The translations under genes were made by a program, and so were the position numbers. From a virus (Duplodnaviria > Heunggongvirae > Uroviricota > Caudoviricetes), in the IMG/VR virus record IMGVR_UViG_2869924733_000008: DNA of 39,122 bases; one strand, given 5' to 3'. Below the pieces are notes generated by a model. The model saw nothing but the letters and a program-made list of their open reading frames with translations, made no database searches and was not told the origin of the DNA. The first letter of the stretch is position 1, and each line of letters opens with the position of its first letter. Positions 201 through 3,853 of the stretch are shown here, one piece after another.

Positions 201-764
201 TTATTCCACGATAAAATTCCTAACCGAATTCAAATCCTTCAGACTATTCAGCTCTTCCTTCAGCTCCCGCTGACGGCGATAAATCTCGTCATTGCGCTCA
301 ACCTGTGCCTGAGCCATTGCTGCCGCCAGTTCTTCCAGTTCCGGCATCGACAGTTTCACCTGCTGATTATCGGCATCACCCCACGTCATCACGTCCCGTA
401 CAATGTCGGATTTCGCAGCCATTACCACCGGATAAAGGCGGCCCAGTGAGTTGGGGCCAGCATTCCAGATACGACCGTTCCATTCAAACGTGAACGGCTT
501 CGCCTCCTGTTCTGTGCGCCATGCTTCAATTCCCTGACGTCTGGCCTCTCTGGCCGCTTCCAGCATTTCTGGTGTCACAGTGAATGGGGCTATCTCACCC
601 CATTTGCCGCTTTGCAGTTCCTGCCAGATTTGCTGACCCGTCGAAGCGACATCATCAGCGGTGGCTGTGTAGGGGACTGCCTGGTCCCTGTCGTCAAAAA
701 AAACGTCACAGTCTACTGCGCCACTTTCGGTATAACGGGGATTAATGATTTTTTTAATTTCCAC
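201..764 (-). CDS. Tail fibre assembly/chaperone-like protein (second fibre-chaperone cassette)
   Basis: ORF directly downstream of the fibre gene at 775-2043. Start is probably GTG at 764, preceded by GAGGA; the ATG at 818 would overlap the fibre gene by 44 nt. The C-terminal acidic/coiled region resembles enterobacterial prophage fibre chaperones (recall only). Confidence 0.45.
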   Translation of the reverse strand: MEIKKIINPRYTESGAVDCDVFFDDRDQAVPYTATADDVASTGQQIWQELQSGKWGEIAPFTVTPEMLEAAREARRQGIEAWRTEQEAKPFTFEWNGRIWNAGPNSLGRLYPVVMAAKSDIVRDVMTWGDADNQQVKLSMPELEELAAAMAQAQVERNDEIYRRQRELKEELNSLKDLNSVRNFIVE

Positions 765-774
765 GGTGCATTCC

Positions 775-2043
775 TCACGATGTGCGAATAAAAAGCCCAA
801 GCATTGCGCCAGAGACATATGTATCCGGCCCCCCGGACAGGGCGCAATATGACCCCGGTAATGAATGCTCTGAACATCCCGTAATGAAAAATTGTGGGGA
901 TGCTATATACGTTCCGGTGGGAGTACTGGGCACTGAAATCCCCACCGGTCCCAGTCGTGAGCCTCTGTATGACTGCCCCCTGACAAGTCTGATGACTTTA
1001 TCACCGTCAGCTTCTCCCTGGTACGCAGCAATAATCAGCCCGCCAATGTCAGGGTCTCCCCATCTGTTGCGGACAGAGCTCGCCACGATTCTGTAAATAA
1101 TATCTTCTGTGGTTATATTTATTTTCACCCAGCCAGTCAGTCTGGATATGGGCCAGTAGCAGTAGCGGGTGTGATAAATGGGGCCGTTAATGCCGTAAAA
1201 AGTAAGGGATTTGGCTCTGTACCTCGGTTCTGTTGTCTCAGGGCGTGCATCAGTCCACCGGATGCTGAGCACCCCTTCAAACCGTGTGTCGGGTATGATG
1301 ATGTCGTAGGGGCCAGCAACGGAATATTCACCTGGCAGCGCATTCCTTACCCAGGCCAGGAAATCACTCTTAGTGTCAAAACGGATAACATCTTCAGGCA
1401 GAAAAGCACGCCCAAAGCCGAATGCGCCGGGTATCGCCAGACGGCCTTTTGTCCGGTCGTAAATGTCGCTCTGTGCTTCCATCGTGGCTGCACTTTTCAG
1501 CCCCAGATTATCCCGGGACTTCTGTTGTGCCTTTTCGCCTGCTGCTGCGATTTCAGACAGATGGTTAGCCGTTTTCAGAGTGCCGGTCAGCGCAGCATCA
1601 ATGTCATTTTTGGCCTGTTCTGCTGCGCGGGCATAACCTGCGGCTGCCGCCACATCCTGCGCCGTCTGCTGTGCGTTTCCGGCTGCGGCCCCGGCGCTCT
1701 GCTGCGCCTGCGCCACCATTTCCTCAAAGCGTTTGACGACATCCGGTTTCAGGTCGCCCTCATCAGGAGCAATCAGAAAGTCATTCAGCGTGCCGGGCTT
1801 TGAGTCCTCATATACAGCAATGTCGCCAACGTTGTACTCGTTGCGCCAGTCCTGTTTCAGATACACACCATATTTTCCAGTCCGCGCATGGAAACAGTAT
1901 TCACCATCGTTTCCTGTCATCACATCAGCAACAGTGTGCATAACCACTTCCGGGGTGTTTACCCGGGATTTCAGAATAATATGGTATCCGGACATGGGGA
2001 TACCTGCGCCATCAGTCAGCGCACCTGATATCACTACAGACAT
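775..2043 (-). CDS. Side tail fibre-like protein with lambda Stf-type N-terminal domain
   Basis: N-terminus MSVVISGALTDGAGIPMSGYHIILKSR...VYEDSKPGTLNDFL matches the recalled pattern of the prophage tail-fibre N-terminal domain (lambda Stf begins MAVKISGVLKDGTGKPV...). The C-terminal ~150 aa are not recognisable. Confidence 0.55.
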   Translation of the reverse strand: MSVVISGALTDGAGIPMSGYHIILKSRVNTPEVVMHTVADVMTGNDGEYCFHARTGKYGVYLKQDWRNEYNVGDIAVYEDSKPGTLNDFLIAPDEGDLKPDVVKRFEEMVAQAQQSAGAAAGNAQQTAQDVAAAAGYARAAEQAKNDIDAALTGTLKTANHLSEIAAAGEKAQQKSRDNLGLKSAATMEAQSDIYDRTKGRLAIPGAFGFGRAFLPEDVIRFDTKSDFLAWVRNALPGEYSVAGPYDIIIPDTRFEGVLSIRWTDARPETTEPRYRAKSLTFYGINGPIYHTRYCYWPISRLTGWVKINITTEDIIYRIVASSVRNRWGDPDIGGLIIAAYQGEADGDKVIRLVRGQSYRGSRLGPVGISVPSTPTGTYIASPQFFITGCSEHSLPGSYCALSGGPDTYVSGAMLGLFIRTS

Positions 2044-2066
2044 TGTTTTTCTCGCGATAAATTAAA

Positions 2067-2612
2067 TCAGGAAGAACCTTCCGGAGAGACGGGCCATTCA
2101 ATGGCGTTGTATGAGGATTTATCAGTGATGGCGCTGAAATCCATCGCCTGCAGTGATTTCGCGTAAATACGACAGGCTTTCAGCTTTTCTTTATCTTCGT
2201 CGCTGATTAACCCCAGCAGCAGGTCTTCTTCCCATTCCCCTGTCCGGGCACTGACCTGAGCCAGAAGGGCATCACGCTCATCTTCCGCTTTGAGTCTGTA
2301 GTCAAAGACAAATTCATCATTGCGGTAAAACCAGTAACCCGGCGCGGTAATCCGTCGGTTAGCGGTAATATCAGGAACTTCAATAACACTGGCATTGCGT
2401 GGCTCGATGCCTGTCACATCCTTACCGACCCACACCACACGACCGTCTCCGGTGTAAGCTATTTTTATTGTGTCGCTGGCGAAATTCTTCAGCTCTTCAT
2501 ACCAGTTTTTTCCGTCTTCTGAAAAAAGCCAGGTGACCGAATATCGTTTTGTCATCTGATATTGTTCTGCTGTTTTCGGATTACCCGCAGTAATATTTTT
2601 TAAATGCAACAT
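2067..2612 (-). CDS. tfa: Tail fibre assembly protein (P2 gpG / Mu U family)
   Basis: 181 aa, N-terminus MLHLKNITAGNPKTAEQYQ typical of enterobacterial Tfa proteins; lies immediately 3' of the gpH-like fibre gene. Confidence 0.8.
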   Translation of the reverse strand: MLHLKNITAGNPKTAEQYQMTKRYSVTWLFSEDGKNWYEELKNFASDTIKIAYTGDGRVVWVGKDVTGIEPRNASVIEVPDITANRRITAPGYWFYRNDEFVFDYRLKAEDERDALLAQVSARTGEWEEDLLLGLISDEDKEKLKACRIYAKSLQAMDFSAITDKSSYNAIEWPVSPEGSS

Positions 2613-2614
2613 TG

Positions 2615-3853
2615 TTAAATACTCGCTACGTTATACCAGGTGCCATTAATCAGTTTTTGCAGTGGTCGGTAATACACACCGTCAACGTTATCCGCTGAGT
2701 TACGGCCGGTATCCGATATCGCCATCCCTGACAGCCCGTGTCCCGAAGGTGCGCAAAATCTCCACGAAACGGTGTTACTGCCGGGGCTGTAATACATTTC
2801 ATGGCCATACCGTACATCCTGTACCCCCTCTGTTCGATATTTATAGCGGGCATCGAAGTTTCCGTAATTTAACGGAATTACCTGTCCGTTAACAGTGAAC
2901 ACTATGCTGTTATCCGGGTTTCTCTGGCTGAAAAAATGCCAGCCTGAATCATCACCAAGCTCTGCAACAACAGGCCTGGATGGATTACCCCACAAACAAA
3001 ACGCTGCATTTTTCGTGGAGTTGTTGGCGCTGGATAACGTGAATTTTCTGGCAGTTCCGGCCTGAATATTCTTAAAAGCAATAGCCACGCCATTCTGAAA
3101 ACGAAATACATGCTGTCCATTCGCATAAACATCAAGCAGACCATCGCCATTTTGTTTAAACCCGGTATCGTTATCTCCTAAAACGATTGAACTTCCACCT
3201 AACGCATTCGTCGTACCAATTCCAAGACAACCATTAATGACGGCATTAACCAGAATATTTAGTGTATCCCATTTGAGATTCATCAGGTCTTTAACCCGGC
3301 CGCCAGCGAGGCGGTGTCTCCATTTGAAATATTCATTACCGTTATCCGCCGTTTCAAACCACATGTAGGAATCGGTGTCTGCATCCGAATCATTTTTAAA
3401 TCCAATCTTCGCCCAGTCAGTATTCCGAATCCAGGCGAGGATTGAGTCGTTTTCAAAAGTAAGTCCACCGGACAAGGTATCGCCTTCCTGATGAACATAG
3501 CGTTGATCTGACTGCTCTTTACTGTAAACCTGAAGATTATCCCGTGCCGTCCCTTTATTCTGAAGGTCTGACAGATTGTTCTTCTGCCGCAGGAATATCC
3601 TTTTCGGATCCTCAAGAAGATTTACCCAGCCCGCACTGTCGGAGCCTTCAGGATCGGTCAGGTTATCGTCTGTGGTATTCAGCCAGACCGCTGTTGTTGC
3701 GACTCCGGCGAGAATGGCTCCTTTTGCATATCCACCAATGGCCCCCGCAAAACCGGCATTATACGTGTACAAACCGCCAGCCTGGGCGAACCGTATTGCT
3801 GCGGTAATATCGTACATCAGACCGTTAAAATCCTTGCCGTGTGGCGGTCCCCC
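2615..3853 (-). pseudogene. Tail fibre gene (P2 gpH / Mu S-like), 3' portion, separated from its 5' end by an IS110-family insertion
   Basis: C-terminal region [55 protein letters not shown] closely matches the recalled P2 gpH C-terminus. The reading frame stays open upstream of the first Met up to the IS boundary (..[22 protein letters not shown]). Confidence 0.8.

Follow-up and report, generated by a model that had tools for sequence, protein, structure and literature searches.

We analysed a stretch of 39,122 nucleotides (nt) from the IMG/VR virus record IMGVR_UViG_2869924733_000008, here called the window, with emphasis on two tail fibre genes and the helper genes that accompany them near its beginning. 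Positions 163-3853 together with 5303-5466 very probably represent the distal part of a late operon belonging to a temperate phiP27-like prophage with a contractile tail. This module encodes two independent fibres, fibre 1 and fibre 2, each with its own putative helper protein, and an intact phage would display both fibres together.

Four co-directional and closely packed open reading frames (ORFs) were found on the minus strand between 201 and 3853, i.e. 2615-3817 (fibre 1), 2067-2612 (a Tfa-type tail fibre assembly protein), 775-2043 (fibre 2) and 201-818 (a DUF4376 protein), and the intergenic gaps between them are 2, 23 and 10 nt, respectively. The ORFs and their domain matches agree with the initial annotation, which had described two fibre-chaperone cassettes in tandem on one strand. 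None of the four proteins has a family in NCBIfam. Promoter-like and terminator-like sites in the fibre region were no commoner than in shuffled sequence, which, like the tight packing, is consistent with a single transcription unit. The GC-rich hairpin following the DUF4376 stop codon may mark the end of the late tail operon; a simple terminator scan did not call it. At 163-218 it matches only the terminal stem-loop of CssrB, a Shigella small RNA in Rfam, at 30 bits, below the gathering score of 76, and the similarity probably reflects merely a shared terminator-like hairpin. The positions of all features are given in Table 1.

The four-gene arrangement is already known; it entered the databases with the phiP27 sequence and is annotated by routine pipelines in many E. 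coli and Shigella genomes. The order of a fibre, Tfa, a fibre with an Stf-type N-terminus and a DUF4376 protein was also observed in VL46 (E. coli), in the best 25 E. coli matches and in many prophages of E. coli and Shigella. In the Stx2e phage phiP27, genes L54 to L57 have the identical order and lie, like those of the window, at the prophage end, with attR after L58; in Rac-SA53 the same order is found in tail1 to tail4, which are followed by attB. The phiP27 proteins L55, L56 and L57 are homologous over their full length to the Tfa protein, fibre 2 and the DUF4376 protein of the window, with identities of 73%, 45% and 79%, respectively. Unlike in the phiP27 and Rac-SA53 modules, fibre 1 of the window is split by the insertion sequence (IS) ISEc20. 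For further comparison we used 70 related loci from IMG/VR, which were retrieved with a single sequence and are mostly close relatives.

Fibre 2 begins with the lambda-Stf-like domain that had been recognised from the sequence at the outset: residues 1-131 (1651-2043) match PF08400, 'Prophage tail fibre N-terminal', with an E value of 2.2e-70, and the N-terminus matches the solved collar domain of lambda Stf (PDB 9e7m) with an E value of 7.5e-16. The whole protein matches phrog_2636 at full length (E 3.8e-204), reaching position 567 of the 568 in the profile; its colinearity with phiP27 L56 extends to the final residue, and its length equals that of the annotated VL46 gene. Tblastn matches to many Shigella copies of the gene (L051-L063 and others, at about 6001-6680 of each locus) fall in overlapping pieces in differing frames. 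These copies are frameshifted pseudogenes, whereas the copy in the window is one intact ORF.

The C-terminal part of fibre 2, about 150 amino acids (aa) at 775-1250, had been described as unassignable and as either a novel receptor-binding domain or a frameshifted remnant. We found no match to it in Pfam even at an E value of 10, none in NCBIfam and no sequence match in PDB, so that it indeed belongs to no curated family, but its extent is larger, about 227 aa (778-1458). Searching 1.84 billion representative proteins exhaustively, we found that 92 clusters (50% identity) carry this module, always at the extreme C-terminus, in proteins of 200-1300 aa, most of which also have an Stf-type N-terminus. 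In 62 representative proteins the alignment covers nearly all 227 aa and ends at a common conserved LF-R-A motif, and in an alignment of 36 sequences some Gly, Trp, Tyr, Phe and Arg residues do not vary, the terminal motif among them. Structure prediction, one of the checks proposed with the initial annotation, was run on the C-terminal part in AlphaFold2 and gave a confident, mainly beta model with a mean predicted local distance difference test score (pLDDT) of 88.3; a Foldseek search of PDB with this model returned nothing at E<0.001. Novelty can thus be upheld only in that Pfam and NCBIfam have no model and PDB no close structure for it, because the module is common and catalogued.

That the C-terminal part is a frameshifted or degraded remnant of a known fibre domain is an idea to which the lack of a curated family and the decay of the surrounding prophage might lend some colour. 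It is nevertheless hardly credible, since the phrog_2636 match runs end to end, the protein is colinear with L56 and as long as its VL46 counterpart, the 62 representatives share the same terminal motif and the predicted fold is confident. We concluded that the C-module is a real and widespread fibre tip to which no solved structure is close. Judging by its position and by weak similarities, it is most likely the receptor-binding part of the fibre. The module occurs in phiP27, Rac-SA53 and the lytic rV5-like phage Av-05. The tips of fibre 2 and phiP27 L56 are only about 29% identical, and the two fibres therefore probably differ in specificity. In the 1061-aa Rac-SA53 tail3 (locus L003, 2375-5560), the first half of the module, starting with DIYD-T-GR-A-PGAFGFG and continuing for about 100 aa, occurs three times before a final full module. 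From this repetition, to which partial hits in the search of representative proteins add, the module comprises two sub-domains, and repeats of the first one can extend along the shaft.

The second helper of the module would be the DUF4376 protein. Its longest ORF, 201-818, encodes 205 aa from the ATG at 818, with the PF14301 match at residues 88-192 in the C-terminal half. The gene most likely starts instead at the GTG at 764, as predicted from a GAGG Shine-Dalgarno sequence 8 nt before this codon and from the alignments of phrog_1141, which begins at residue 17 of the long ORF, and of phiP27 L57. Among the loci with enough downstream DNA, a C-terminus of the fibre 2 type was followed by a DUF4376 gene starting less than 60 nt away in every case (63 of 63). 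The pairing extends to Av-05, in which a C-module (32% identity) and a DUF4376 gene (39%) stand behind a differing N-terminus.

Alteromonas phage V22 (gp27; PMC7289586, PMC10579305) and Campylobacter CJIE1 prophages (PMC7882524) need DUF4376 proteins, encoded directly after a fibre gene, for their fibres to function. In V22 (gp26/gp27) and CJIE1 (the H-fibre and its downstream gene), as in the window, the fibre gene is directly followed by the DUF4376 gene, although the fibres are unrelated in sequence; V22 also shares a DUF2612 baseplate protein with the window. By analogy with these systems, the DUF4376 protein of the window most likely folds fibre 2. A PDB sequence search with it returned nothing meaningful. 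An AlphaFold model (pLDDT 80.6), built from a shallow alignment in which identities are 74% or higher, predicts two long helices flanking beta hairpins. The similarities of this predicted fold hint at an oligomeric chaperone, but matches of coiled coils are not specific. In addition, phrog_11571 matches both the N-terminal half of the window's Tfa and the C-terminal half of its DUF4376 protein, and the two helper types therefore appear to exchange domains, giving hybrid chaperones.

Two neighbouring fibre/chaperone sets recall the gene content of invertible segments such as Mu G (S/U and S'/U', with Gin), P1 C (Cin) and e14 P (Pin), in which alternative host-range sets are expressed one at a time. 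If the two cassettes of the window were such sets, switched by DNA inversion or another phase mechanism, the poly-G run in fibre 1 of some alleles might also be of interest. In the known systems, however, the two sets point towards each other within the invertible segment, the N-terminal part of the fibre is constant and common to both, and a serine invertase gene lies alongside; the window lacks each of these traits. Its genes are co-directional; fibre 2 possesses a full N-terminus with a start codon of its own, while only C-terminal parts are swapped in switch systems; and the poly-G run is missing from most alleles, which read GGGAGGTAT. A tblastn search of the 39-kb window with Hin yielded only helix-turn-helix noise at E>0.6 inside IS transposases. 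Cores of the hix/gix type were absent from the fibre region, with a sole match in the window at chance level, and no long inverted repeats were found in 1-6200, where the repeats detected were short and imperfect. The search for an invertase beyond the window, likewise proposed earlier, was run on the flanking chromosome and the 70 loci and found none: past position 1 lie the bacterial genes sitDCBA, uspF and ompN, with sitD directly adjoining and nothing phage-encoded after the DUF4376 gene, and no Hin-like gene was present within 6 kb in any of the loci (0/70). These results agree with the statement in the initial annotation that the region is not a switch of the Mu G-segment type, and alternate expression of the two sets is exceedingly improbable. 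Because the genes are co-directional and there is no recombinase, both fibres would be made at once.

The comparison of the related loci separated the two ends of fibre 2. In 24 loci with Tfa upstream of fibre 2 (phiP27-like tails), the N-terminal domain is 85-100% identical to that of the window; in 21 loci with Lom upstream (lambdoid tails), it is 47-50% identical. The C-module is 88-98% identical to that of the window in both groups, and the same C-module and DUF4376 gene also occupy the lom-stf position of lambdoid prophages (e.g. L014). These alignments indicate that the N-terminal anchor goes with the type of virion, and that the tip and the DUF4376 helper move together and are common to both types. 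Because the anchor tracks the virion type, fibre 2 would be a true structural part of the contractile-tail phage rather than mere cargo.

We also considered that fibre 2 and the DUF4376 gene could be a hitch-hiking lambdoid stf module that recombination brought to the prophage end, a cargo or remnant that is not assembled onto the contractile-tail virion. The cassette does lie at the extreme end of the prophage, its C-module and DUF4376 gene share 88-98% identity with the lom-stf copies in lambdoid remnants of the same genome group, and many Shigella copies are frameshifted (L051-L063). We nevertheless judge this improbable, because the four-gene order is kept in phiP27 (45% aa identity) and, at about 83% nt identity, in Rac-SA53 and in prophages of pig enterotoxigenic E. 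coli, and because the anchors with Tfa upstream form a class of their own, 85-100% identical to one another and about 50% identical to the lambdoid ones, as expected if they are adapted to the virion. Furthermore, the contractile phage XM1 is known to bear a fibre with an Stf-type N-terminus on its neck. As a separate observation, in Shigella lambdoid prophage remnants (L014, 4606-9081, and about 45 other loci) the fibre tip and DUF4376 gene are flanked by lom on one side and on the other by ipaH, which encodes a NEL E3 ligase effector. Homologues of ipaH are also found near the module in many phiP27-like loci; there are none in the window.

For fibre 2 as part of the virion, lambda and XM1 offer two models of attachment. 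The Stf of Ur-lambda likewise has a PF08400 collar domain, then a helical stalk, and is followed by a separate downstream helper gene. The lambda fibre, however, resembles T4 gp37 in its distal part and has Tfa (PF02413) as its helper, whereas fibre 2 has the unrelated distal 227 aa and a DUF4376 helper; and lambda Stf is encoded after J-lom of a non-contractile tail, whereas fibre 2 follows fibre 1 and Tfa of a contractile-tail phage. The lambda virion carries a ring of twelve Stf collar domains around its bare tube, where gpV meets gpM (PMC12617516); a contractile-tail virion does not offer this site in the same form. The Vibrio phage XM1 is contractile and has the same simple baseplate type as the window, as indicated by the match of the DUF2612 protein to XM1 gp17 (E 7.8e-8), and six trimers of its gp40 bind the neck (PMC10457771). 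XM1 gp40 consists of an immunoglobulin-like N-terminal domain and a long trimeric helix, to which residues 1-212 of fibre 2 appear to correspond (PDB 7kjk, gp40 collar spike, aa 1-207; phmmer E 7.4e-6). At its C-terminus gp40 forms a Det7-like tailspike that bears no relation to the C-module. By analogy with XM1, a neck position for fibre 2 is plausible. The only PDB match of the ORF at 15045-15590, which lies directly upstream of the sheath gene, is a very weak one to the XM1 tail terminator (E 0.74). A more far-reaching proposal would take the Stf-type fibre as a neck (collar) fibre like XM1 gp40, with the module and DUF4376 gene exchanged between the side fibres of lambdoid phages and the collar fibres of myophages, and would take the DUF4376 helpers as structurally distinct, prefoldin-like chaperones of a conserved frame within an unsolved receptor-binding fold. 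We regard these joint ideas as tentative and rather doubtful.

Taken as two fibres with one helper each, the module could work as follows in an intact phage. Fibre 1, which is like P2 gpH and T4 gp34, would presumably be anchored by its first 55 residues to the baseplate beside the DUF2612/J wedge, and would be matured by a classical Tfa. Fibre 2 would be anchored to the virion by its Stf collar domain and would extend through the helical stalk to the beta-rich 227-aa tip, which would bind the receptor; its folding would be assisted by the DUF4376 protein encoded 10 nt downstream. Both fibres would be produced from one late transcript, so that two specificities would be displayed at once and not alternately. 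Some points weigh against this account. A sheathed tail has no established seat for an Stf-type collar domain. The putative chaperone is far better conserved between the window and phiP27 (79%) than the fibre tip (29%), unlike the usual tip-specific pattern of Tfa proteins. A search of the phiP27 literature found nothing on fibre function, and no published experiment on fibre 2 or on phiP27 L56/L57 was found, so that receptor binding and the chaperone role are argued by analogy.

The fibre 1 cassette is less complete than it had seemed. The initial annotation had placed a gpH-like fibre and Tfa at 2067-3853; a gp34/gpH-like fibre and Tfa are present there, but only the 3' 411 codons of the fibre, and the disruption of the gene by an IS110-family element had been overlooked, as had the defective state of the prophage. 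The ORF 2615-3817 encodes 400 aa from its first ATG, and the frame is open up to 3853. This 3' part contains a T4 gp34-type trimerisation domain, matches many tail-fibre PHROGs and shares about 82% of its nt with P2 gene H across 2909-3484. The missing start lies at 5303-5466, where 164 nt are identical to the uninterrupted allele of locus L016, which has 100% protein identity to fibre 1; these first 55 codons are 98-100% identical at the aa level in 10 loci. Comparison with VL46 and L016, by which the junctions were set, showed that the gene is broken after codon 55 by ISEc20. The transposase (4081-5277) matches DEDD_Tnp_IS110 (E 7e-49) and Transposase_20 (E 7e-22), and the left end of the element is 100% identical to elements annotated as ISEc20 in prophages of Shiga toxin-producing E. 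coli. Locus L047 carries the identical insertion.

The target of ISEc20 is a G-run, the coding strand reading CAGC-G6, the element, and G5-ACCGCC (flanks 3849-3853 and 5303-5308). The uninterrupted alleles read GGGAGGTAT at this site in 7 loci, G8T in VL46 and G10, which is out of frame, in L016. Subtracting a shared core of 2 nt from the 11 G would restore the frame, which fits an insertion of the IS110 type. The poly-G run was also considered as a phase-variation tract and was dropped, being missing from most alleles. In the non-coding left end of the element (3854-4080), the 9-mer CGGGGGGTG at 3934 is identical to the target flank, the 9-mer TAATAGGGG at 3977 is identical to the right end of the element, and the 8-mer ACTGCCCC at 3911 is complementary to the junction of right and left ends in the circle. 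These short matches look like guide segments of a bridge RNA; an Rfam search of the left end gave no match to a bridge-RNA family.

The prophage adjoins sitABCD in a chromosome of the Shigella/enteroinvasive E. coli type (CP027027.1). Genes for the sheath, sheath initiator and wedge of a contractile tail are present, and the annotation of the source contig lists E217_GP41, sheath initiator and wedge protein. The N-terminus of the sheath matches the Pa193/E217 sheath, and the tail, as judged by homology, is of the simple XM1/E217 type. Compared with the intact VL46 gene, the baseplate J gene (6060-7297) is frameshifted near codon 137 (about 6888) into ORFs of 150 and 260 aa. The sheath gene (DUF3383, 13734-15064) is split into the adjacent ORFs 14501-15064 and 13734-14498, beside an IS3-family copy at 12891-13709. 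Insertion sequences fill much of 9442-39122 (Table 1). With fibre 1 split by ISEc20 and with broken genes for baseplate J and the sheath, the prophage is defective and its tail module cannot work.

Table 1 Features of the fibre module and insertion sequences in the window
Feature	Position	Strand	Evidence or remark
GC-rich hairpin, directly 3' of DUF4376 stop codon	163..192	-	Candidate end of late tail operon
DUF4376 protein, 187 aa from GTG 764, putative folding chaperone of fibre 2	201..764	-	PF14301 E 2.2e-15
Fibre 2, 422 aa, intact: Stf-type N-terminal collar domain, Ala/Gln-rich helical linker, C-terminal module	775..2043	-	PF08400, phrog_2636
Fibre 2 C-terminal module, aa 196-422, 227 aa, candidate receptor-binding region	778..1458	-	No curated family
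Tfa-type tail fibre assembly protein, 181 aa, putative chaperone of fibre 1	2067..2612	-	Caudo_TAP/Tfa PF02413 E 2.4e-26; phrog_136 E 9e-60
Fibre 1, 3' fragment, 411 codons, gpH/gp34-like shaft and tip	2615..3853	-	PF21446 E 2e-7; phrog_454 E 7e-89
ISEc20 (IS110 family), about 1.45 kb, transposase 4081-5277	3854..5302	+	Boundaries +/- 1-2 nt
Fibre 1, 5' fragment, first 55 codons, putative baseplate-attachment end; overlaps stop of DUF2612 wedge gene	5303..5466	-	Comparison with L016
DUF2612 baseplate wedge protein, gene directly upstream of fibre 1	5453..6058	-	PF11041 E 5.6e-66; PDB 7kh1 XM1 gp17 wedge E 7.8e-8
Truncated IS66 transposase	9442-10332		
IS30-like 383-aa transposases	10737-11804 (shortened), 26037-27188, 33082-34233, 35486-36637		
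IS3-family orfB genes	12891-13709, 27953-28858, 32167-33006		
IS630-like genes	29219-30250, 37271-38302		

The module of the window by itself adds little new biology. The insertion in fibre 1 provides a clean natural insertion site of an IS110-family element, for which uninterrupted alleles exist for comparison. The C-module is a common enterobacterial fibre tip with a confident AlphaFold model and with no curated family, solved structure or known receptor. Its strict pairing with DUF4376 proteins in temperate and lytic phages would make the two a good candidate pair for fibre engineering, and the sharp break between the anchor and the tip with its helper marks where such fibres appear to recombine.

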